A stretch of 64,000 nucleotides of DNA from a virus (IMGVR_UViG_3300031707_002920:1-64000), one strand, 5' to 3'. Positions 5,958-40,405 are shown, counted from the stretch's first letter. Numbers and translations are program-made. The notes: a model not told the origin generated them from the letters alone.

Positions 5958-7088
5958 ATGAAGCATTTAGCCGTTATACAAGCTGAATTTGTTAAAACAG
6001 CGAGAAAGTGGAAAGATTTGTCGTATGATGAGCAAAAGCGGTATATTAAGAGACATCCAAAAACTAAACGTAGATTGACGGCAAAGCCGAGAGCAAAAGG
6101 AGTTGAGACCGATTTTAATGAAATGATTGGTTCAAAACGAATAGTCGTCGGTGTGAAGAAGTTAAATAGACTGCTCGACAAAATTAATAAAAATTACATT
6201 AAAGTCCCAAGAGCAAAAGTTAGCTGGGTTTTAGAAAAAGCTTTAAACGGCACACCTCCGCGTAATAATCCTAAAACGTATGATTTGAGAGAGCACGATC
6301 TAACAGCACCGAAAACACAGAAAATAGTAAATGCTCTTAACAGACGAGTAAATAGATTAGTCAGATCGTCAAATAAACTTATCGCTAGACAAAGGTCATC
6401 AGGCGAGGCTGTTGAAGCAGTTAACAATTATATTAAGCAAAATTTTGTAGTGCTCAAGGACGCAAAACCTGTTAAAAGTCTTAGAGAAATGCGAGAATTT
6501 AAAGCGCCAAAAGTAAAAGTTGAAAAAGTTAAACGGCCAACAGGATCACATTTTAGTACAGGTGATCGAGTTAAACTTAGAAATGGCATCGAAGGAACTA
6601 TTGTTCGCATTAAATATGGACATAAATGGACGACGATAAACGTCACGACAGATGACGGCAAGCATTGGCATACTAAACATTCGGGCACGTATGGTCCCGG
6701 CTTAACATTTATAGGTAAAACTTCAGAAAAGGATGCCCAGAGGATAAAAAAGGTACGACAAGATTTTGATCAAGCTATTAACAATAGAAAACAACGACGC
6801 ACTGAAGAGGGTCGAGAAAAAATTAATTTAATGAGTATTCATCCAGGCGATACTATAATGATTAAAGGTCATGACTATAATTGGTCGGCAGAAGTTGTCA
6901 GTGTAGATTATCGCAAGGGCGGCGTTAGGATCAATCAACTGAGATCGAGAAGACAACGACCATCAATTTTTAACAGTGGATTTGGGTCTGCAGTTCTACA
7001 GCCAGGGCGTGTAGTGTCTCAACACTATAGATTTATACCTGCAGTTTATATCGTAAGTAAATCTGGCAAAGGAGCATCACATTCATGA
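5958..7088 (+). CDS. MKH-leader family protein with KOW-like motifs
   Basis: MKHLAVIQAEFVKTARKWKDLSYDEQKRYIKRHPKTKRRLTAKP; FSTGDRVKL, IHPGDTIMI. Confidence 0.8.
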   Translation: MKHLAVIQAEFVKTARKWKDLSYDEQKRYIKRHPKTKRRLTAKPRAKGVETDFNEMIGSKRIVVGVKKLNRLLDKINKNYIKVPRAKVSWVLEKALNGTPPRNNPKTYDLREHDLTAPKTQKIVNALNRRVNRLVRSSNKLIARQRSSGEAVEAVNNYIKQNFVVLKDAKPVKSLREMREFKAPKVKVEKVKRPTGSHFSTGDRVKLRNGIEGTIVRIKYGHKWTTINVTTDDGKHWHTKHSGTYGPGLTFIGKTSEKDAQRIKKVRQDFDQAINNRKQRRTEEGREKINLMSIHPGDTIMIKGHDYNWSAEVVSVDYRKGGVRINQLRSRRQRPSIFNSGFGSAVLQPGRVVSQHYRFIPAVYIVSKSGKGASHS

Positions 7089-9771: not shown

Positions 9772-9867
9772 GTAACATGGTTTATCTTCGCTTTTTCAAT
9801 TGATTATTGTTTTATATTCAGGAATATTTCAAGAAACTTGTTGTATATTATTTAATTGGAGCACGTA

Positions 9868-9993
9868 ATGCAAACCTTACAACTTCACACCACGCTATCA
9901 ATAGAACGTGTAAAGCACGTGGTAATGGGGTTGTCCTATTTATCATACCTTGGAAAAGAAGAAGGTTATGATATATGGACAGGCGGGGTTTGA
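9868..9993 (+). CDS. Leader peptide 1 (41 aa) of the tRNA operon 1 attenuator
   Basis: GGAG RBS; MQTLQLHTTLSIERVKHVVMGLSYLSYLGKEEGYDIWTGGV*; stop overlaps the antiterminator strand. Confidence 0.8.
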   Translation: MQTLQLHTTLSIERVKHVVMGLSYLSYLGKEEGYDIWTGGV

Positions 9994-10512: not shown

Positions 10513-12261
10513 ATGAATGAATTACAAGAAGTTCAAGAAATTCGCAAGTTGTACAATGAAGGCGCATTTTTAGCGACTTTGCAAGAACGATTTGGTAAAC
10601 TTGTAGTTAAGCATGCATTGGCAGGTCATCGTCAAAGTAAAGGTGAACGTTGGCGATCACTTCGCAAGATGCATCCTGAAACTTTTAAGATGTCAGATGA
10701 AGCTAAACAACGAATTTCAATAGCAAGAAAGAAGTATTTAGACTTACACCCTGAAAAAGTACCATATAGATTAAATCATTCATCAAAGATAAGTTGGCCT
10801 GAAAAAATATTTGAAAGTGCACTTAAACGACATGATATTACAGGTTGGGTAAGAAATTACATGAATGGTCGATATGAATATGATTTTGCTTTTCCAATGT
10901 TGAAAATTGATGTTGAAATTGATGGCAATACACATTCACTAAGTAATGTAAAGAAGATTGATTGTGAGCGTGACAATTGGTCAAAGTCTCAAGGATGGAT
11001 TATATTACGATTTACAGCGAAACATGTACTAAGAGATGTAAATCAATGTATTGAATTGTTGCAAAAACAGATTAGTAATATGACATTAGATGTTAACGAT
11101 GAAATTAATGCGTCATTTTTAATGTTAAGAACAGCTAAAGATCGATATCGACACGCATTGAAAGAACGACGGCAACAACGCAGTGTTGAACGCGCTAAAA
11201 AAATTGAAGAGTTACAGCAAAATAGTATTCAGTTTAATGAAAATAAAAAAATTGCAGGTAATGAATTGTCATTAGAAACCATTTTAGATCGAGTAAATAT
11301 AGCTAAAAATAATGATCAAGAAAAACGAGGATACGTATCTGAGTTATCTGAATTGTGGAAAGTGTCTAGTACACAAGTTCGAAGATTTTTAAAGCAATAC
11401 TGTCCGGAATGCTTAAGATTACGTACTCGTGTTTTTTGTGAACAAGCTAAGTTTATTAAAACTGATGAGGTTGTTAAACAGATCATAAGTGACTATAAAA
11501 ATGGCGATTCTTTAAGTCAAATTTGTAAAAAATATATTGTATTAAAAAAAATTGTTAAGCAGTTATTACTAGATAATCATGTGGAAATAAGAGATAAAAG
11601 ATATTATGCTAAAAGAACACTAGCTGATCGACATCAAAAATATCTAATGTCATATAGTGACAAACTTACTGATATTGTCAAAGATCATGATAATGGTTGT
11701 ACAATTAGAGAACTTAGAAGAAAATACAATATCAGTAGAACGATAATTAAAAAATTGTTGAACTTGTCAGACAGTGATTATAAAAACCAATTACAACAAG
11801 AAAAATTAGATAAACTAGAAGCTAAGATCATACAAAAACAAAAGCTGCAAAATCAAATTAAGCAGCAGCAGCAGCGATTGTTAAAACAGAAAAGAAAACT
11901 AAAACGAAGATTAAGTCCTGAAAATCAACAAAAAATGCAAGATCGAATAAATTGCATACTCAAATCTGAGATAGATTATTCATCTTTTGGATGGGTAAAT
12001 AAAGTTTCAGTTCTTATTGGACTATCACCACAAAAGGTTAATGGATGGATGAAAAAATACATGTCAGATTTTTATGACAGTAATTGTTTCAAAAAAAGAG
12101 ATAGAAAAAATATATTGTTATCTAATGACGTCATTGAACAAATAGTTAGTGATTACAAAAATAGCAAATCATTACGTCAAATTTGCAAAAAATATGACGT
12201 GTCAAAGAATGTTGTTAAACTATTGTTGTTAAGTCGTCACATTGAAATAAGAAGTCGATGA
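10513..12261 (+). CDS. DUF559/Vsr-like putative homing endonuclease with repeated HTH-like modules
   Basis: YEYDFAF..KIDVEIDGNTH..D.ERD....QGW.ILRF; repeated IxxDYKNxxSLxQICKKY motif; AAGGAGG RBS. Confidence 0.8.
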   Translation: MNELQEVQEIRKLYNEGAFLATLQERFGKLVVKHALAGHRQSKGERWRSLRKMHPETFKMSDEAKQRISIARKKYLDLHPEKVPYRLNHSSKISWPEKIFESALKRHDITGWVRNYMNGRYEYDFAFPMLKIDVEIDGNTHSLSNVKKIDCERDNWSKSQGWIILRFTAKHVLRDVNQCIELLQKQISNMTLDVNDEINASFLMLRTAKDRYRHALKERRQQRSVERAKKIEELQQNSIQFNENKKIAGNELSLETILDRVNIAKNNDQEKRGYVSELSELWKVSSTQVRRFLKQYCPECLRLRTRVFCEQAKFIKTDEVVKQIISDYKNGDSLSQICKKYIVLKKIVKQLLLDNHVEIRDKRYYAKRTLADRHQKYLMSYSDKLTDIVKDHDNGCTIRELRRKYNISRTIIKKLLNLSDSDYKNQLQQEKLDKLEAKIIQKQKLQNQIKQQQQRLLKQKRKLKRRLSPENQQKMQDRINCILKSEIDYSSFGWVNKVSVLIGLSPQKVNGWMKKYMSDFYDSNCFKKRDRKNILLSNDVIEQIVSDYKNSKSLRQICKKYDVSKNVVKLLLLSRHIEIRSR

Positions 12262-13271: not shown

Positions 13272-13332
13272 GTTTAAAGGAGGTTATAATCAATCGTATA
13301 ATTGCATAAGATAAGTTTCTATAGAAATGAAT

Positions 13333-13633
13333 GCTCGGATGGTGGAATTGGTAGACACAAGGGACTCTGTAAAAGGGTCGTATATCTTGGAAACAAGTAT
13401 ATTGTAAACTGTCAAATTCGGTGGACGGTGTAAAATCTCAACGCCGAGCCAAGCTTTAGGTAACTAAAGAAGGTGTAGAGACTAAACGGCAGTCACCTAA
13501 AAGTTAACAGTTGACTCATGGTGAAGACATAGTCCAGACTACAAACAATGCTTGTTGACGATGAAAATCGTAGTAGTAAGTAAAATCCCTCGGGAGCGAT
13601 CCTATACCGGTTCAAGTCCGGTTCCGAGCACCA
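13333..13633 (+). tRNA. tRNA-Leu(TAA) interrupted by a group I intron
   Basis: Exons 13333-13366 and 13581-13633 join to AGGGA-CTTAAAA-TCCCT; ends ACCA. Confidence 0.92.
13367..13580 (+). ncRNA. Group I self-splicing intron (214 nt, no ORF)
   Basis: P1 GACT|CT...AGGGTC with U-G at the 5' splice site; core AAATTCGGTGGA, GCCGAGCCAAG, GTAGAGACTA, AAGACATAGTCC; terminal G. Confidence 0.9.
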
Positions 13634-13661: not shown

Positions 13662-13735
13662 GCCGGATTGGTGTAATTGGTAAACACGCTTATTTCAAAA
13701 GTAAGTCTTTGAGAGTTCAAAACTCTCATCCGGTA
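13662..13735 (+). tRNA. tRNA-Leu(CAA), short variable loop
   Basis: CTTAT-TTCAAAA-GTAAG. Confidence 0.82.
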
Positions 13736-13744
13736 TATGAAAAT

Positions 13745-13826
13745 TGCGGCGTACAGTAGCGGTCTAACTGGGAAGCCTCATAAGCTTCTGGCGCAAGCCT
13801 CATGAGTTCAAATCTCATCGCCGCTA
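13745..13826 (+). tRNA. tRNA-Met(CAT), initiator-like 1:72 mismatch, extra variable arm
   Basis: GAAGC-CTCATAA-GCTTC; TGCGGCG/CGCCGCT. Confidence 0.82.
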
Positions 13827-14743: not shown

Positions 14744-14788
14744 TAATTAAATTAAGATCATGGCAATAATAATTGATTATCACTTTAT

Positions 14789-15143
14789 GATCCTGTGAGC
14801 GAGAAAACCCACGGTTGAAACCGTGGGATGAAAGCGAGCCGTAATATATATTCTAAATGACAGGCTCAGTTCTGAACTCTTCAAGGCTGAAAGTGCCGGT
14901 TGAGTTCCATAAAAAAATGAACTGAATCACCGTCAAAAGCTCCTTGCTTCAGGGCCAGATGTAAAAAGCACCACGGTATCATCCTGGTTTTCTGGAAAAG
15001 CACTCTGATTCGGAGATTCATAAAATTTCGTTTCATACCCAGACTCGGGCTGGAGTCTGTTGAGCGACCAGTGCCCCGCCGCAAGGCGAAAGCACCGGTG
15101 AGGGCTCATAGAAGCCCACGACTTTAGTCGTGGGAGCAGTCAC
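14789..15143 (+). mobile_element. ORF-less IS605-family derivative (PATE/MITE-like), copy A
   Basis: Inserted after TTAT; left hairpin CCCACGGTT-GA-AACCGTGGG; right part closely matches 66-168, ends TCAC. Confidence 0.88.
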
Positions 15144-15259
15144 TATATTTACAATACCATTCAGTCTTCGATTTGTCTTTGATAATTGAATTTAGAATAT
15201 GTGAAAGAGTTAGATGATGATGCTATTCTTGAAAGATTAAATATTGATGATGAACTAAA

Positions 15260-16669: not shown

Positions 16670-17194
16670 ATGCTATGTCCAATATGTAATTCTGATACTT
16701 TGGTCATTAATTCGAGGGTAGTAAATGCTTGTTGTAATGTCAGGCGTCGAAGAAAATGTATAAAGTGCGATTATCGATTCAATACCATAGAACGAGTAAG
16801 AATAGATATGAATGAAAAGTTAAAACAAGTTATCGTGATGCGATCAGACCTTAATATGAGAAAAGGCAAAATGATTGTACAGGGCGCGCATGCATCAATG
16901 AAAATATTTTTTGATAGAGTCGAATCAATTAATAAGAAGATGTGTTTGAATATTACGCAGGCAATGATGGAGTGGATGACTGGTATTTTTACTAAAATTT
17001 GTGTGAAGGTCGACTCGGAACGAGAGTTACTTGAGATTAGAGAGAAAGCTATTTCTTTAGGATTACCAGTAGCTTTGATTGAAGACAACGGGTTGACTGA
17101 ATTTAAAGGAGTAGTAACAAAAACTTGTCTTGCAATAGGGCCTGATGATTCGGAAAAAATTGATCAAGTTACAGGTCATTTACAATTATTGTAA
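16670..17194 (+). CDS. pth2: NrdR-type Zn ribbon in frame with peptidyl-tRNA hydrolase 2
   Basis: MLCPIC..VINSR...VRRRRKCIKC.YRFNTIE; KQVIVMRSDLNMRKGK...QGAHA, DNGLTEF, AIGP, VTGHLQLL. Confidence 0.9.
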   Translation: MLCPICNSDTLVINSRVVNACCNVRRRRKCIKCDYRFNTIERVRIDMNEKLKQVIVMRSDLNMRKGKMIVQGAHASMKIFFDRVESINKKMCLNITQAMMEWMTGIFTKICVKVDSERELLEIREKAISLGLPVALIEDNGLTEFKGVVTKTCLAIGPDDSEKIDQVTGHLQLL

Positions 17195-21186: not shown

Positions 21187-21282
21187 ATGCATTTATTTAT
21201 ACGCACATCTACATGGCTTTATAATACTGCCAGTGATATGCGTTCAAATTTCTGTGCAACAATTAGAATGGAAATAACATAA
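21187..21282 (+). CDS. Leader peptide 2 (31 aa) of the tRNA operon 2 attenuator
   Basis: AAAGGA RBS; MHLFIRTSTWLYNTASDMRSNFCATIRMEIT*. Confidence 0.78.
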   Translation: MHLFIRTSTWLYNTASDMRSNFCATIRMEIT

Positions 21283-24983: not shown

Positions 24984-25013
24984 TAATAATCTTATGATTT
25001 TTTAGACAAAAAT

Positions 25014-25716
25014 ATGAAACATCTAATGATAGTCCAAAAAGAATTCTTGAAATATGCGTCAGACGGTCGTTCTATTCCTGTGTCGCAACTTGGCATTCAT
25101 AGACCTGGATCATGGTGGGATGATTTATGATCCTGTGAGCGAGAAAACCCACGGTTTCAACCGTGGGATGAAAGCGAACCAGTACACATAAAAAATAAAT
25201 TACATTCTTTGTGAAAAATAATGTATATTTAAATCCAGACAGAGATTGTTCCTCAAAGCTGAAAATGCTGGTTGAACACTAAAAATCTCTATCTACTTTT
25301 CTCCTTGCTTCAGACCTAATAAATCTGATTCGGAGATCTCAAAGTTTTTAAAAGAACTCAGACTCGGGCTGGAGTCTGTTGAGCGACCCCCGCATCGCCG
25401 CAAGGCGGCAGCACGGGTGAGGGCTCATAGAAGCCCACGACTTTAGTCGTGGGAGCAGTCACCTTATAAAGAACAGATAGCATATCTTAGAAGACATCCA
25501 AAATCATTCTGGAAACGATATCTAAAAAAACCACCTAAAGAAGAAACTATTGAACTTTCTACTGAGCCTTTAATTCAACCTACAGACTATTATGGAGAAG
25601 ATTGGGACAGTCTAACACGAAAAGAACAACTACAGGAATTAGCTTATCATCAACGAAAACAACTTAAAAAACGACAAAACCTTCAACGGCAACTTATACT
25701 AAAGGGCATGATTTAA
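25014..25716 (+). pseudogene. MKH-leader family gene interrupted by IS605 derivative B
   Basis: Removing 25129-25462 restores a 122-aa ORF MKHLMIVQKEFLKYA...WWDDL|SYKEQIAYLRRHPKS. Confidence 0.88.
25129..25462 (+). mobile_element. ORF-less IS605-family derivative, copy B
   Basis: TTAT|GATCCTGTGAGCGAG left end, TCAC right end, same end hairpins as 14789-15143. Confidence 0.92.
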
Positions 25717-25890
25717 CTAAGAAATTAGGGTTAAAGTAATCTTAAGATTAACTTATAATTAATGGTTTTACTACGATATTTATAATGATTATTTATAATA
25801 GAAGTGGTGCTTAGAAGAAAATTTCAGAATTTACTTAATCTCAATTTTCTTCGAATTTCATCCTTCTTTTAAACTAAAAAAGGTTTTAAA

Positions 25891-25956
25891 ATGACGATTC
25901 GTAGGCAGCCGCAACAGCAACGTCGCCCTCAACCAGGACGGTGTATGCTCAAGTGA
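25891..25956 (+). CDS. Leader peptide 3 (21 aa, Arg/Gln/Pro-rich) of the tRNA operon 3 attenuator
   Basis: AAAGGT RBS; MTIRRQPQQQRRPQPGRCMLK*. Confidence 0.85.
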   Translation: MTIRRQPQQQRRPQPGRCMLK

Positions 25957-26016
25957 AGCTGTCGAATTAACGTTATATTTATTAAAGGCTTCACTTGAAA
26001 AAGTGGAGCCTTTTTT
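25951..26016 (+). terminator. Attenuator 3: antiterminator plus intrinsic terminator
   Basis: AAGTGAAGCT (contains the leader stop) complements GGCTTCACTT of terminator AAAGGCTTCACTT-GAAA-AAGTGGAGCCTTTTTT. Confidence 0.88.
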
Positions 26017-26032
26017 ATTGTTGAAATAAGCA

Positions 26033-26107
26033 CGGGACGTAATGCAGTGGGAGCATGCAACATTTGGGATGTTGTAGTCGTCGGTTCGAATCCGACCGTC
26101 CCGACCA
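26033..26107 (+). tRNA. tRNA-Pro(TGG)
   Basis: CAACA-TTTGGGA-TGTTG; ACCA. Confidence 0.92.
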
Positions 26108-26114
26108 ATTTTAT

Positions 26115-26189
26115 TGGAGTATAGCTCAATGATAGAGCACTGAGCTCTGGACTCAGATGTTTGAGGTTTAAATCCTCATACCCCAGCCA
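26115..26189 (+). tRNA. tRNA-Gln(CTG)
   Basis: CTGAG-CTCTGGA-CTCAG; GCCA. Confidence 0.88.
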
Positions 26190-26194
26190 AGTTT

Positions 26195-26267
26195 CGGGAT
26201 GTATTTCAAATGGTAGAATTTCTGATCCGGGATCAGAAGGTTAGCAGTTCAAGTCTGCTCATCCCGA
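26195..26267 (+). tRNA. tRNA-Pro(CGG)
   Basis: TCTGA-TCCGGGA-TCAGA (C33). Confidence 0.88.
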
Positions 26268-26291
26268 TTACATAAGTGTCTGATTGTAAAA

Positions 26292-26366
26292 CGGAGCGTG
26301 GCCCAGTCGGTTCAGGGCTCCTGAACGGGGTTCAGGAGATCGGCAGTTCGAATCTGCCCGCTCCGA
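26292..26366 (+). tRNA. tRNA-Pro(GGG)
   Basis: CCTGA-ACGGGGT-TCAGG (C33). Confidence 0.88.
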
Positions 26367-26371
26367 TTAAT

Positions 26372-26446
26372 GTTCCTATAGCTCAACTGGATTAGAGCAG
26401 TAGTTTCCGATACTACAGGTTAACCGTTCAAATCGGTTTAGGAACA
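26372..26446 (+). tRNA. tRNA-Arg(CCG)
   Basis: GTAGT-TTCCGAT-ACTAC. Confidence 0.9.
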
Positions 26447-26453
26447 ATAAATT

Positions 26454-26527
26454 AGGGGTGTAGCTCAGTTGGCTAGAGCAGCAGATTTTGATTCTGCGAG
26501 TCGTGGGTTCGAGTCCCTCCACCCCCA
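26454..26527 (+). tRNA. tRNA-Gln(TTG)
   Basis: GCAGA-TTTTGAT-TCTGC. Confidence 0.88.
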
Positions 26528-26534
26528 TTAACAT

Positions 26535-26608
26535 ATCTCTATAGCTCAATGGATTAGAGCAGCGATTTCCTACATCGCAGGTTGAGAGTTCAAATCTCTC
26601 TAGAGATA
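26535..26608 (+). tRNA. tRNA-Arg(CCT)
   Basis: GCGAT-TTCCTAC-ATCGC. Confidence 0.9.
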
Positions 26609-26623
26609 CTATTTCAATATGCT

Positions 26624-26684
26624 TGTTTCTTAATTCAACGGTAGAATGCAAGCTTTGAAACTTGACACAGAGGTTCGACACCTT
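26624..26684 (+). pseudogene. Degenerate tRNA (Gln-TTG-like) lacking the 3' acceptor strand
   Basis: ATTC-AACGGTA-GAAT D-arm, CAAG-CTTTGAAA-CTTG, GAGG-TTCGACA-CCTT. Confidence 0.5.
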
Positions 26685-26712
26685 TTGCTATTGCTATTTC
26701 TAGTAAAATGAT

Positions 26713-27036
26713 ATGAACAATGTAATTCAGAAAAACTTGTACAAAACTTGTACAAGATGTAAATTAACAAAACCTATTGAAGAGTTTTATAAACAGGTTC
26801 AAGGAATATATGGTTGCAAGAGTGAGTGTAAAGAGTGTTCAAAAAAATTAACAAGCGACGATTATCAAATACATAAAAAAGAAAGAAATGCTACAAAAAG
26901 AAAATGGTGCATAAGAAATAGGAAAAGATATAATGAAGTCCATTTAAAATGGGTACACGATAATAGAGAGCATTACAACGCTTATCATAGAGAGTATAAA
27001 CAAAGACAAGCTCGTTTATTTGTGCCTGTTTCCTAA
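26713..27036 (+). CDS. Zn-binding N-terminal module of an HNH-type homing endonuclease (catalytic domain absent)
   Basis: KTCTRCKLTKPIEEFY...CKEC. Confidence 0.65.
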   Translation: MNNVIQKNLYKTCTRCKLTKPIEEFYKQVQGIYGCKSECKECSKKLTSDDYQIHKKERNATKRKWCIRNRKRYNEVHLKWVHDNREHYNAYHREYKQRQARLFVPVS

Positions 27037-27094
27037 CAGGATAGGGGATCAGATTACGAATCTGATTGTGAGAGTTCGAATCTCTCCAGGCACA
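27022..27094 (+). tRNA. tRNA-Arg(ACG)
   Basis: TCAGA-TTACGAA-TCTGA. Confidence 0.9.
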
Positions 27095-27230
27095 CTTTTT
27101 TCTTCATAGTTAATCTCACCTGATTGGTAAATTAAATTTAAAATTTATCATAAGATCAAATTTGAAGAACTGATTAGTTCGTGAAAAATGTATAGAAATT
27201 TATAAATGTACTAAACTAAAAAGGATCTTT

Positions 27231-28457
27231 ATGAAGAAAAATGTATTAATTATTGGTGCTGGCGGTGTTGCACAAGTAGCAGCTCATAAATGTGCACAAA
27301 ATAATGATATTTTAGGTGATATTTGTATTGCATCTCGTACTAAAAGCAAATGTGAAGAAATAATTAATGGTATTTATCGATTGAATAATTTAAAAGATAA
27401 GACAAAAATGATATGCTCACGACAAATAGACGCTCTAAACGTGCAGTCTACAATACAATTGATAAAAGATACGAATTCATCAATTGTACTGAATTTAGGA
27501 TCAGCGTTTATTAACATGTCAGTTCTTGAAGCATGTATTCAAGCTAAAGTAGATTATTTAGACACTGCGATTCATGAAGAACTTGATAGAGTAGCAACTA
27601 TTTGCGAACCACCGCCGTGGTACGCAAATTACGAATGGAAAAGGAAAGATCGTTGTACCGCTGCTAAAATTAATGCTATTTTGGGCGTAGGTTTCGATCC
27701 AGGCGTCGTCAATGCTTATTGTAAGCTTGCTGCAAATGAATATTTTGATAAAATTGATACTATCGATATTATGGATGTAAATGACGGTCGTCATGGTAAG
27801 TATTTTGCTACTAATTTTGATCCAGAAATTAATTTTAGAGAATTTGTTGGTACGGTATTAACGTGGGTCGATCAAAAATGGGTCCGTAAATCGATGCATT
27901 CTGAAAAAATGATTTATAAATTCCCGATAGTTGGTGAACAGACGATTTATCTTACAGGTCACGACGAATTACATTCATTGTCTAAAAATATAGATGCTAA
28001 TAGTATTCGATTTTGGATGGGATTTAGCGATCATTATATTAATTGTTTTACCGTGCTTAAAAATATTGGTCTGTTATCAGAAAAACCAGTAATTGTCGAA
28101 GGTTGCGAAATTAGACCGTTGAAAGTAGTTAAAGCTTGTTTACCTGATCCTAAGACATTAGCACCCGATTATAAAGGTAAAACATGCATCGGCTGTCTAG
28201 TGAAAGGCACAAGAGATAATCAAAATAGAGAATTGTTTATTTATAACATCTGCGATCACGAAGATTGTTATCGTGAAACAGCGTCGCAGGCAATAAGTTA
28301 TACTGCAGGCGTACCGATTGTAGCAGCTGCCATACTTGTTGCGACAGACGTGTGGAGTCCTAAAACCATGGTAAATGTCGAAGAATTGCAGCCTGACGTA
28401 TTTCTGCGATTGCTTGATAAGATGGGCCTCCCGACAACGCTAAGCTTTTTAAAATGA
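27231..28457 (+). CDS. Carboxy(nor)spermidine dehydrogenase (saccharopine dehydrogenase family)
   Basis: IIGAGGVAQVAAHKCAQ, GFDPGV, FATNFDPEINFRE, SQAISYTAGVP, NVEEL. Confidence 0.9.
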   Translation: MKKNVLIIGAGGVAQVAAHKCAQNNDILGDICIASRTKSKCEEIINGIYRLNNLKDKTKMICSRQIDALNVQSTIQLIKDTNSSIVLNLGSAFINMSVLEACIQAKVDYLDTAIHEELDRVATICEPPPWYANYEWKRKDRCTAAKINAILGVGFDPGVVNAYCKLAANEYFDKIDTIDIMDVNDGRHGKYFATNFDPEINFREFVGTVLTWVDQKWVRKSMHSEKMIYKFPIVGEQTIYLTGHDELHSLSKNIDANSIRFWMGFSDHYINCFTVLKNIGLLSEKPVIVEGCEIRPLKVVKACLPDPKTLAPDYKGKTCIGCLVKGTRDNQNRELFIYNICDHEDCYRETASQAISYTAGVPIVAAAILVATDVWSPKTMVNVEELQPDVFLRLLDKMGLPTTLSFLK

Positions 28458-28467
28458 TTAGATTAAT

Positions 28468-29025
28468 ATGAATGTGTATGTGCTTTCTCGCCAAGAAATT
28501 GAACATATTATTACGTCGCATTATAAGAAATTTAATAAATGGGCATTGATTTCAATTTATAATATGTCAGGACCATTACTCAATGAGTGTACTAAAGAAA
28601 TATTACGTCTTATTGGTTGTCATAAAACGTTAAGCCTTAAGTTTTCTGATATTTCAAACACTGAATATTATAGATTAATAAATCAGTTTAAGACGAGAGC
28701 AGTCAATAGATTATTTTTATTTTCAACTGTTCAAGCGAAGAAAATAATATCTTTTGTAGATCGTATAAATACTAATACCACTGATCTAGTCGTCCATTGT
28801 GAGGCCGGAATAAGTAGATCTGGAGCTGTCGCATTATTTGCTTGTAGATATTTAAATTTAGATGAACAGCAATTTTGGCAATTAAATAAACGCAAAGGCA
28901 AGCATAAACAGATTCAGCCTAATCGATATGTGTATGACACGCTATATCACGTGTCGGGTATGAAGAAGTTATATCAAAGTTTTTGGCAAGGCGCTATAAG
29001 CGACAAACTTACAACAAAAACTTGA
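28468..29025 (+). CDS. Protein-tyrosine-phosphatase-like protein
   Basis: VHCEAGISRSGAVA (CX5R), QPNRYV. Confidence 0.85.
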   Translation: MNVYVLSRQEIEHIITSHYKKFNKWALISIYNMSGPLLNECTKEILRLIGCHKTLSLKFSDISNTEYYRLINQFKTRAVNRLFLFSTVQAKKIISFVDRINTNTTDLVVHCEAGISRSGAVALFACRYLNLDEQQFWQLNKRKGKHKQIQPNRYVYDTLYHVSGMKKLYQSFWQGAISDKLTTKT

Positions 29026-30795: not shown

Positions 30796-31207
30796 GGGGG
30801 TGTAAGGTTTCGACAGATTGGGTGAAGTAACAGTTGCATGTAGAGGAAATCACTGGTTGGCCTCTTAAATCATCCGGTGAACTTTAACTGCCAACACAGG
30901 TGCAGTTCTGGGTGCAAAATTCGCAACACAGTTTGCTGTTCTTTGCGGATTGACCTCCCAGGTCAGCGTTGCTTAATTTAAAAGCAACAGAGTTTTAGTG
31001 AGAGCCACGGTAGCTAAAACTTCAAGTAGTGTGGATAGGACAACCGAATCGCAGTAGAGAAGGGGACCGAAATGACGTCTGCGCCTCTTACTTGTGAAGC
31101 TTGCTGATTCTTAGTAATAAGATAAGAGGAAGTTACAGAATCAGATAAACATGTAGTAACTGTTATAGAGCACATTCTGGACAGGGGTTCAATTCCCCTC
31201 ACCTCCA
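30796..31207 (+). ncRNA. ssrA: tmRNA
   Basis: GGGGGTG...TTCGAC 5' end, GGGG-TTCAATT-CCCC-TCACCTCCA 3' end with G3-U70; tag ORF 30890-30976 after TTAACT. Confidence 0.92.
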
Positions 31208-38793: not shown

Positions 38794-40405
38794 ATTTGAC
38801 CAAAAAAATGTGTCTGATTTCTTTCCGTATCCGACATATAGACAGTATCAATTAGAGACCATTAATAAAATTCAACAACATTTTGTTGATGGTGTTAAAG
38901 ACATTATTATAGAGATGCCTACTGGTTCTGGAAAATCGCCTGTAGCAATTGCATGTGGATTATGGTCAGAGAATTCTTATTGTTTAACTTCACAAAAAAT
39001 CTTGCAAGATCAATATATTAAAGATTTCACTGAAGATTACAGGATTTCTGTGTTGAAAGGTCGCAGCAATTATGAGTGCACATTTTTGGGTGATCCTGCA
39101 ATGTGTAACGAGTGCTATGAACCTGCCAGAAAGCAATGTTATAAAAACGGAACGTGCCTTTATCAGATTGCTAAGAAAAGAACAATTAATTCTATTATAG
39201 CGTTGATGAATTATTCATACTTTCTGAATGTGACAGATTGTGATCCTAATAAATCGTTCGGTAAGAAGAAATTGTTGATTTGTGACGAGTGTCACTCGCT
39301 TGAGGGCGAGCTTATGGGGCAGGTCGAGTTCATTTTATCAGAATTTATGTTTAAGCGATCAGGGTATCCTGTTGCTATTCCCACATATGAATCATTAGAT
39401 CAATATGAAGCGTGGATAAAAGAAAATATAGAACAAGTGCAAGCGATTTTAAAGAAAAAAAATGATGAGTTAGATAGTTTGAATAGACAGCGAGTGAGTC
39501 TTAGTCGTGAATCTTTTAATTTTAAAAAAATGTCAGGAGAGACGGCTGAACTAGTGTCGCAAGTTGAAGAAATTGATCGTCTTTATCGACGAATGAATAC
39601 GTTTTTGAATACTATAGGTTTAGTTGAATGGGTGTTTACGGTCGAAAGAACTGAAAAATTAAAGATGAAGAAAGTGATTTTTAAACCATTGACGATTAAT
39701 TTATTTGCACCCGATTGTTTATTAAATTACGGTGAACAACGACTTTACATGTCAGCTACTATTTTAGATAAAAAGAGTTTTTGTCATAGTCTTGGTATCA
39801 ATTGTGATGAAGCTGCTTTTATAAGAGTGCCATCAACGTTTCCTGCTAAAAATCGGAAGATATTTTTTACAAATTCTGGTTTTATGAACTTAGCGAATAT
39901 CGACGATACGTTACCAAATATTGTCAGAGACTTGAAAAAAGCACTGGCATATCATAAGTCTGAAAAAGCACTAGTGCATTGTCATTCATATAAGATTGCA
40001 AATTACATACAAGAAAATTGTCATGACCATCGGTTGATTTTTCATAATTCAGAGAATCGTGAAAAGATGCTTCAAAAGTTTATGCAATCGACAGATCCTA
40101 TGGTTTTAGTTTCGCCGTCTATGACTGAGGGTCTTGATCTTAAAGATGACTTAGCACGTTGGGAAATTATAGTCAAAGTACCGTATTTATATTTGGGTGA
40201 TAAACAAGTATCTAGAAGAATGGCAATTGATCCTGATTGGTACAATTGGCAAACATGCCTGACACTGGTTCAGAGTTACGGTCGCATTTTTAGATCAGAG
40301 ACTGATTGGGGAACAGTATATGTATTTGATAGTGGAGCAAGAGGATTTATACAACGTAATGTAAGTATTTTACCACAATGGTTTATCGACGCTTGTCAAT
40401 TTTAA
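38786..40405 (+). CDS. DinG/Rad3-like SF2 helicase
   Basis: PTGSGKS, LKGRSNYEC, DECH, MSAT, EGLD, QSYGRIFR. Confidence 0.9.
   Translation: MHRFDQKNVSDFFPYPTYRQYQLETINKIQQHFVDGVKDIIIEMPTGSGKSPVAIACGLWSENSYCLTSQKILQDQYIKDFTEDYRISVLKGRSNYECTFLGDPAMCNECYEPARKQCYKNGTCLYQIAKKRTINSIIALMNYSYFLNVTDCDPNKSFGKKKLLICDECHSLEGELMGQVEFILSEFMFKRSGYPVAIPTYESLDQYEAWIKENIEQVQAILKKKNDELDSLNRQRVSLSRESFNFKKMSGETAELVSQVEEIDRLYRRMNTFLNTIGLVEWVFTVERTEKLKMKKVIFKPLTINLFAPDCLLNYGEQRLYMSATILDKKSFCHSLGINCDEAAFIRVPSTFPAKNRKIFFTNSGFMNLANIDDTLPNIVRDLKKALAYHKSEKALVHCHSYKIANYIQENCHDHRLIFHNSENREKMLQKFMQSTDPMVLVSPSMTEGLDLKDDLARWEIIVKVPYLYLGDKQVSRRMAIDPDWYNWQTCLTLVQSYGRIFRSETDWGTVYVFDSGARGFIQRNVSILPQWFIDACQF

Follow-up and report, generated by a model that had tools for sequence, protein, structure and literature searches.

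The enterobacterial attenuators trpL, hisL, pheL and leuL each combine a Shine-Dalgarno-led short ORF with clustered regulatory codons, alternative 1:2, 2:3 and 3:4 hairpins, and an intrinsic terminator that directly precedes the genes under control, and region 2 is masked once a ribosome reaches the stop codon. In the multivalent thrL and ilvL/ivbL leaders several amino acids are sampled. The element described here, which comes from a large uncultured phage and which we refer to as leader 3, is predicted to share these features, sequestration of region 2 by the 1:2 hairpin being a possible one, but it differs from the enterobacterial attenuators in that it would regulate tRNAs rather than biosynthetic enzymes, with feedback on tRNA supply, samples three amino acids and eight anticodons, and is phage-borne. 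Escherichia coli pheST, with its pheM leader, shows that ribosome-mediated attenuation can act on phenylalanyl-tRNA synthetase; as proposed for leader 3, a component of the translation apparatus is controlled through its cognate codons, although the target is a synthetase and not a tRNA gene, a single amino acid is involved, and the system is not encoded by a phage. T-boxes control terminators according to tRNA status, and they resemble leader 3 in that the state of a particular tRNA decides between terminator and antiterminator; however, a T-box binds uncharged tRNA directly without translation, whereas the sensor in leader 3 is a predicted translated ORF and there is no T-box motif.

tRNA genes are usually taken to be expressed constitutively or in step with growth rate, and phage tRNAs to be a fixed remedy for codon usage. 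The closest published inducible spare tRNA array is the trn operon of Anabaena PCC 7120, a long tRNA array whose genes are silent under normal conditions and come on when translation is impaired (PMC8421152, PMC10272220). It is a supernumerary, inducible tRNA set as we propose for the operon behind leader 3, but its control is at the promoter, via direct repeats and the repressor TrcR (PMC8421152, PMC10272220), and neither report mentions a leader or any word beginning with attenuat-. Full-text literature searches returned no report of leader-peptide or ribosome-mediated attenuation of tRNA genes.

Leader 3 lies in a 64,000-nucleotide stretch of viral DNA (hereafter the window), which corresponds to the initial 64 kb of a virus record in IMG/VR (85.9 kb, estimated completeness 43%). 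The window is AT-rich (36% GC), and among the sequencing runs listed its sequence occurs in one DNA run, a sediment metagenome that may be its source, and in no RNA run. The tRNA finder ARAGORN reports 28 tRNA genes and a tmRNA in the window, every one on the + strand, and there are no further tRNAs in the remaining 64-85.9 kb of this 43% complete record. A blastn search of a phage database with positions 25000-29000 gave tRNA-level matches only and no close cultured relative. From the sequence and from modelled folds we consider it likely that leader 3 is a ribosome-read attenuator that couples transcription of a Pro/Gln/Arg tRNA operon to the decoding speed of the corresponding codons.

The leader 3 reading frame

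The leader 3 ORF occupies positions 25891-25956 on the + strand, with an ATG start, 21 codons and a TGA stop at 25954-25956, and reads MTIRRQPQQQRRPQPGRCMLK. A Shine-Dalgarno-like AAGG (25880-25883, +) lies 7 nt 5' of the ATG, and three of the homologues described below (L116, G001 and L118) have AAGGA at the same distance from the leader start. Codons 4-17 (25900-25941, +) form a regulatory codon run in which 13 of 14 positions specify Arg, Gln or Pro, just as the original prediction had read it, and the run is as GC-rich against its AT-rich surroundings as that prediction held (GC 0.67 vs 0.36 for the window). Pro, Gln and Arg together account for 12% of codons in long ORFs, and the binomial P for the 13 of 20 found in the leader is 4e-8. 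The seven other codons include codons 2 and 3 (Thr and Ile), which fall within the permissive stall zone defined by the folding below. AGA, the commonest Arg codon of the phage (39%), is read by the Arg-TCT tRNA of the second tRNA block; it does not occur in leader 3, and it does occur in leader 2.

AT-rich DNA contains many short ORFs (315 of at least 20 aa in 23 kb), and it could be argued that this one is fortuitous or untranslated, that the hairpin behind it is an ordinary terminator or processing structure, and that the tRNAs are expressed by constitutive read-through or from an unrecognised promoter. We think this highly improbable. The Pro/Gln/Arg run is unique in the window: 13 of 14 is the maximum among ~59,000 open 14-codon windows in six frames, the next best outside the ORF being 9 of 14. 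Further points against a fortuitous ORF come from the short distance to the tRNAs, the homologues and the leader-block comparisons given below.

A promoter-like sequence, CTACG-N10-TGATTA, is located at 25771-25791 (+), about 100 nt 5' of the leader ATG. This motif has six matches in the window where 1.3 would be expected, and each lies on the + strand (9786, 21147, 25771, 28440, 40425 and 41428), and those at 9786, 21147 and 25771 are just upstream of the three leaders of the window. In the relatives the motif is also found upstream of the homologous leaders, and it may represent a phage-specific promoter class. Two of the sites are within duplicated 314-bp segments at 40376 and 41379.

Predicted RNA structures

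The leader can be divided into four regions arranged as in the trp attenuator. In minimum free energy (MFE) folds region 1 (25897-25912, +), spanning codons 3-8, is the 5' strand of a 1:2 hairpin. Region 2 (25949-25967, +) is the segment containing the stop codon, and is able to pair either with region 1 or, via 25949-25960, with region 3. Region 3 (25984-25998, +) contains the 5' arm of the terminator (25984-25996), with 25987-25998 as the antiterminator partner of region 2, and region 4 (26001-26016, +) comprises the terminator 3' arm and T tract. The predicted terminator hairpin (25984-26013) has 13 bp, a GAAA loop and a T6 tract extending to 26016, with a folding energy of -19.5 kcal/mol (z -6.3). 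The first tRNA gene, tRNA-Pro, begins no more than 17 nt beyond the T tract, leaving no room for a separate promoter; the shortness of this gap also speaks against a fortuitous ORF with independently expressed tRNAs. The antiterminator is a 12-bp helix of 25949-25960 with 25987-25998, the latter consisting of the terminator 5' arm and two loop bases (-17 kcal/mol, z -4.3). Complementarity between the stop-codon segment and the terminator arm had been anticipated, and at 12 bp it is longer than was claimed. The full-length leader folds (z -4.1) with the 1:2 hairpin together with the terminator.

Searches against Rfam, at the gathering threshold and at E values up to 10, reveal no known family over leader 3. 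None of the Trp, His, Thr, Leu and Phe leader families reaches its gathering threshold, the best, and the only one to appear, being Phe_leader at 20.4 vs 55 bits (E 1.3), over the terminator alone, and the T-box model RF00230 has no match in 25700-26720 at E up to 10. As T-boxes likewise set terminators by tRNA status, we considered whether this could be a T-box-type RNA that senses tRNA directly, or a protein-dependent antiterminator, instead of a switch read by ribosomes. This is extremely improbable, given that no T-box or other riboswitch is matched even at that permissive E value, that neither a specifier nor a T-box fold would fit into so short a leader, and that the conserved ORF with its stop codon within region 2 would be left unexplained.

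Folding with a masked ribosome

A ribosome on the leader was represented by masking a 30-nt footprint, assumed to extend from -18 to +11 of the A site, in folds of the nascent RNA that ended with region 3. With no ribosome on the window sequence the 1:2 hairpin forms and 0 of 12 antiterminator pairs are present. With the A site at any of codons 2-17 there are 10-12 of the 12 antiterminator pairs, and with the A site at codons 18-22, the stop included, there are again none, so the permissive stall zone ends with the Arg/Gln/Pro run. Masked and unmasked folding, which the original prediction called for, agrees with it for the nascent RNA of the window, in that modelled stalls at Arg, Gln or Pro codons give the antiterminator, and a stall at the stop codon or the absence of a ribosome does not.

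Among the homologues, the modelled boundary coincides with the end of the run for G001 but comes one codon before that point for L118, and two codons before it for L038 and L116, where the last two run codons already give 0 antiterminator pairs. In G001 the no-ribosome MFE structure of the nascent RNA already prefers the antiterminator, though the 1:2 hairpin is predicted. When the full leader of the window, region 4 included, is folded at equilibrium, stalls at codons 14-17 still yield the terminator, and the antiterminator is slightly weaker than the terminator (-17 vs -19.5 kcal/mol). The switch would therefore need kinetic, co-transcriptional control, as in trp.

The downstream tRNA operon

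Seven tRNA genes, identified by ARAGORN and the Rfam tRNA model, follow the terminator at 26033-26609 (+) in the order Pro-TGG, Gln-CTG, Pro-CGG, Pro-GGG, Arg-CCG, Gln-TTG and Arg-CCT, and the last gene of the block, tRNA-Arg(ACG), is at 27022-27095 (+; ARAGORN, Rfam). Between these are the degenerate remnant of a Gln-like tRNA, its anticodon loop 8 nt long (26631-26685, +), which scores 27.4 bits with the Rfam tRNA model, under the 29-bit cut-off, and an ORF within the operon for a 107-aa Cys-rich protein (26713-27036, +) that belongs to no Pfam family and is missing between the corresponding two Arg tRNAs in L038. The block thus contains Pro, Gln and Arg tRNAs exclusively, and all eight are able to read at least one codon of the leader. 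The claimed set of anticodons, each with at least one cognate leader codon, is accordingly recovered by ARAGORN, with the qualification that Pro-GGG is served by wobble only: its sole leader codon is CCT, by G:U pairing. Elsewhere, in the relative G003 (L139 10036-10185), ARAGORN reports two adjacent tRNAs with four-base anticodons (cttg and cttt).

Homologues of leader 3 and co-variation with tRNAs

Homologues of leader 3 were identified in four other sequences. A neighbouring saccharopine-dehydrogenase-like gene identified two relatives, in neither of which tRNAs adjoin it, and led to G001, a 416-kb phage contig whose tRNA genes are likewise grouped into blocks; these blocks were located with an Rfam tRNA search of the whole record. 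Scanning for the leader pattern found one new homologue in viral contigs (L038) and two in metagenome contigs (L116 and L118), and no homologue in bacterial and archaeal genomes. A further candidate from the metagenome contigs, L115, was rejected as a chance match to the pattern in GC-rich coding DNA. G003, the contig of L040, has no Pro/Gln/Arg block.

The homologous peptides are MIRRQPQPQRQPQPGQRMLK (L038), MIRRLQQPQRRPQPGQRMLK (L116), MLTLRQTQPQQPRQPRSNMLM (G001, at L034) and MFTLRQTQPQQPRQPRRNMLM (L118). All four keep the reading frame, the position of the stop codon, the Pro/Gln/Arg run and the length (20-21 codons), with one in-frame indel, and this retention of frame and composition in spite of nucleotide divergence and the indel is hard to reconcile with a fortuitous ORF. 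The peptides themselves drift inside the Pro/Gln/Arg class, as in RRQPQQQRRPQPGR, RRQPQPQRQPQPGQR and LRQTQPQQPRQPR, which fits selection on codon class and not on the peptide. The best-conserved part of the peptide (MLK or MLM and the stop) coincides with RNA region 2. Trans-acting leader peptides exist, peTrpL reportedly being one, and leader 3 could by analogy encode a basic, Pro/Gln-rich micropeptide working in trans, its match to the tRNAs reflecting efficient translation by the co-expressed phage tRNAs. We give this very little chance, as it is the composition and not the peptide sequence that is kept, the best-conserved part overlaps region 2, and the leaders of other blocks differ widely in composition, each mirroring its own tRNAs.

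The predicted attenuator structures are also conserved. Three alternative helices are predicted in all five leaders, with 1:2 helices of -17 to -24 kcal/mol. In an alignment of the five sequences 100% of the cells of the antiterminator are paired, three of its pairs differ at both positions from one of the two subgroups to the other, and pairing falls to 22-47% if the partner is shifted by 1-3 columns. Such compensatory changes count against a fortuitous ORF, and because the five homologues form two subgroups, the three pairs may reflect a single divergence.

Where the downstream tRNAs of the homologues are readable, the blocks consist of Pro, Gln and Arg tRNAs only, the short contig of L118 showing tRNA-Pro alone. 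In G001 a DUF488-family gene (L034 3518-3850, +) is inserted between the attenuator and tRNA-Pro, and L118 has a matching ORF; the G001 attenuator would also control a protein-coding gene, because the DUF488 gene precedes tRNA-Pro.

The Arg codons of the leaders vary together with the Arg tRNAs of the operons. The window leader has CGT, AGG, CGT, CGC and CGG, with Arg tRNAs ACG, CCT and CCG in its operon; L038 has CGC, AGG, CGT and CGT (tRNAs ACG and CCT); L116 has CGT, AGG, CGT, CGC and CGT (tRNAs GCG and CCT); G001 has CGA, CGT and CGG (tRNAs TCG and GCG); and L118 has CGA, CGT, CGG and AGA, its Arg tRNAs not being on the contig. AGG is thus confined to the three leaders whose operons have Arg-CCT (window, L038 and L116). 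Both leaders of the G001 type (G001 and L118) contain CGA, and Arg-TCG is encoded by G001, the L118 contig being too short to tell. CGG is present only where Arg-CCG or Arg-TCG is encoded, setting aside the L118 contig, which is without its Arg tRNAs.

These patterns bear on what the proposed attenuator would sense. A stalled ribosome cannot tell a missing tRNA from missing charging, as is established for trp and his attenuation, and the same attenuator could respond to general translational stress or amino-acid starvation, the operon then being a stress-induced spare tRNA set and not a homeostat; the Anabaena spare array, induced upon impaired translation, is a precedent (PMC8421152). We regard this as unlikely, though it is an alternative of some weight. 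Each leader samples the amino acids of its own block only, and for Arg the individual anticodons, which would be needless for a general sensor, and amino-acid starvation is not relieved by extra tRNA.

Other codon-matched leaders

Two further leaders are present in the window, leader 1 at 9868-9993 (41 aa, with the unit extending to 10065) and leader 2 at 21187-21282 (31 aa, unit to 21347). Both have the layout of leader 3, with the stop codon in or adjoining a segment complementary to the terminator 5' arm, and both are kept in L040, L041 and G001, with helix sequences that differ. Leader 2 contains GCA ACA ATT AGA ATG at its end, cognate to the five tRNAs after it. The position of tRNA-Val is informative: in G001 it is in block 2, and the G001 leader 2 has VVV; in the window it is in block 1, and leader 1 has five Val codons and leader 2 none. 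G001 also has a fourth leader (L037 ~6320-6408, -), MKNYTKTCNNNMFSSFCFNSKNELVEFA, which is rich in Asn, Phe, Cys and AGY-Ser and stands before a block with tRNAs for Phe, Ser-GCT and Cys, where a search detected none for Asn, and the 85.9-kb record of the window, 43% complete, has no Phe/Ser-GCT/Cys block.

Leaders unrelated to these, with the same predicted architecture, terminators included, were found with a finder that is blind to amino-acid content. They include L100 3342-3416 (YEKIFFYGSSKIEGMY, in part), upstream of Met, Ile, Phe, Lys, Glu, Tyr, Ser and Gly tRNAs; L061 12807-12893 and L083 (NFVNWFGFDRAANKDGG, in part), upstream of Phe, Lys, Gly, Trp, Lys, Asp, Asn, Met and Val tRNAs; L078 ~13700-13800 and L093 8917-9000 (ANWVANDDNKGRRG, in part), upstream of Gly, Asp, Arg, Trp, Ala, Lys, Asn and Met tRNAs; and L140 ~10550-10625 (HSIHISSISSTES, in part), upstream of Thr, Ser, Ile, Ile, Ser, Ser and His tRNAs. 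The L100, L061, L078, L093 and L140 leaders are unrelated to leader 3 and represent at least two further phage lineages, and an upstream motif, AAAACTTTTT ... TATATA, is common to the L061/L078/L140 group.

The cultured jumbo Ralstonia phage RsoM2USA (MG752970.1) contains two unannotated candidate units of micro-ORF, antiterminator and terminator before tRNA blocks, at L134 8248-8361 (-; near 87248-87361 of the record) and L135 15047-15124 (-), in which 33 of 36 and 21 of 24 residues, respectively, match the downstream tRNAs. Unit A (MFNAFNNNQRQNQAAMFDVRAIAFNAKNDIKGVALVE, in part) precedes Met, Ile, Asn, Asn, Gln, Lys, Arg, Phe, Ala and Val tRNAs, and unit B (MTSHWHSYSLPVSSLELYCLEVEMT, in part) precedes Pro, Cys, Glu, Tyr, Leu, Trp, Ser, His and Val tRNAs. 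The RsoM2USA genome paper annotated only ORFs of >50 aa, and does not mention a leader or terminator. With a simple finder, XacN1, Xoo-sp13, RAS14 and Atu_ph07 gave no convincing codon-matched leader.

Binomial P values for the individual leaders range from 1e-2 to 4e-11. When eight non-homologous leaders are compared with eight blocks, none of the 40,320 permutations scores better than the true pairing, which would not be expected if the ORFs were fortuitous, and after correction for block size its own block ranks first for each of the eight leaders. The view of leader 3 as one instance of a wider system is thus upheld, in that leaders 1 and 2, the fourth leader of the relative and the leaders of unrelated phages all match their own blocks.

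A proposed model for tRNA attenuation

The reading of leader 3 as an attenuator is supported in silico by the ORF, the codon-tRNA match, the three helices, conservation, compensatory changes, co-variation and the modelled stalls, and we infer from these the translation of the leader, the coupling of transcription and translation, termination in vivo and the physiological signal. We propose that transcription would start at the promoter-like motif near 25771-25791, and that a ribosome would occupy the 21-codon leader while RNA polymerase heads for the terminator. Slow decoding at any Pro, Gln or Arg codon (codons 4-17), caused by a shortage of functional, charged tRNAs of the kinds encoded downstream, would leave a stalled ribosome covering region 1 with region 2 free; region 2 would then pair with region 3, no terminator would form, and polymerase would read through into the eight tRNA genes. 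With rapid decoding, the ribosome would mask region 2 from the last codons or the TGA, and the 3:4 terminator would stop transcription at ~26016. In the absence of translation, regions 1 and 2 would pair and the terminator would also form. On this reading, the phage would probably reserve production of its Pro, Gln and Arg tRNAs for times when ribosomes are slow to decode those codons, and the outcome would be a negative feedback in which it replenishes precisely the set of tRNAs whose codons are limiting.

A broader proposal is put forward tentatively, as one we hold to be possible and somewhat short of probable. Unrelated lineages of large phages may split the genetic code among tRNA operons, each behind a micro-ORF of its own codons that reports which tRNAs are short, such that only that set is transcribed. 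This would constitute an on-demand tRNA rescue circuit, and tRNA genes would for the first time be seen under ribosome-mediated attenuation. The likely trigger would be that host tRNAs are lost or cleaved during infection, be it through codon-usage mismatch, host shut-off or anticodon-nuclease defences.

If these proposals are true, tRNA operons would be a new class of target for a textbook attenuation mechanism, and there would be direct feedback from decoding speed to tRNA supply. They would also explain the grouping of phage tRNA genes by amino acid, how phages can afford dozens of them, and how a phage could answer host defences aimed at tRNA. As the codon sets are simple and differ between operons, the leaders could be used as portable sensors to gauge how available individual tRNAs are, and the presence of the same design in the cultured RsoM2USA makes the idea directly testable.

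Other features of the window

Several other features of the window are of note. A fusion protein that joins a PTH2 peptidyl-tRNA hydrolase to an NrdR-like zinc ribbon is encoded at 16670-17194, after tRNA block 1, and the tmRNA gene is at 30796-31207, 4 kb past block 3; the PTH2 fusion, tmRNA and tRNAs can be described together as a translation-rescue island. The window also encodes HNH and DUF559 endonuclease-like genes. A group I intron is located at ~13325-13612 (+; 63 bits with Rfam over 13357-13557), and its flanks resemble the two halves of a long-arm tRNA, probably tRNA-Leu (acceptor GCTCGGA...TCCGAGCACCA), that was missed by ARAGORN. Finally, a structured element of ~390 nt is present in two copies, at ~14755-15150 and ~25100-25480 (+). 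The copies are almost the same in their 5' and 3' parts but vary in the centre, and the element corresponds to no Rfam family. A gene that starts at 25014 (MKHLMIVQKEFLK...) seems to be interrupted by the second copy, with the frame resuming near 25500 and ending at 25716, and the element may be a self-splicing intron.
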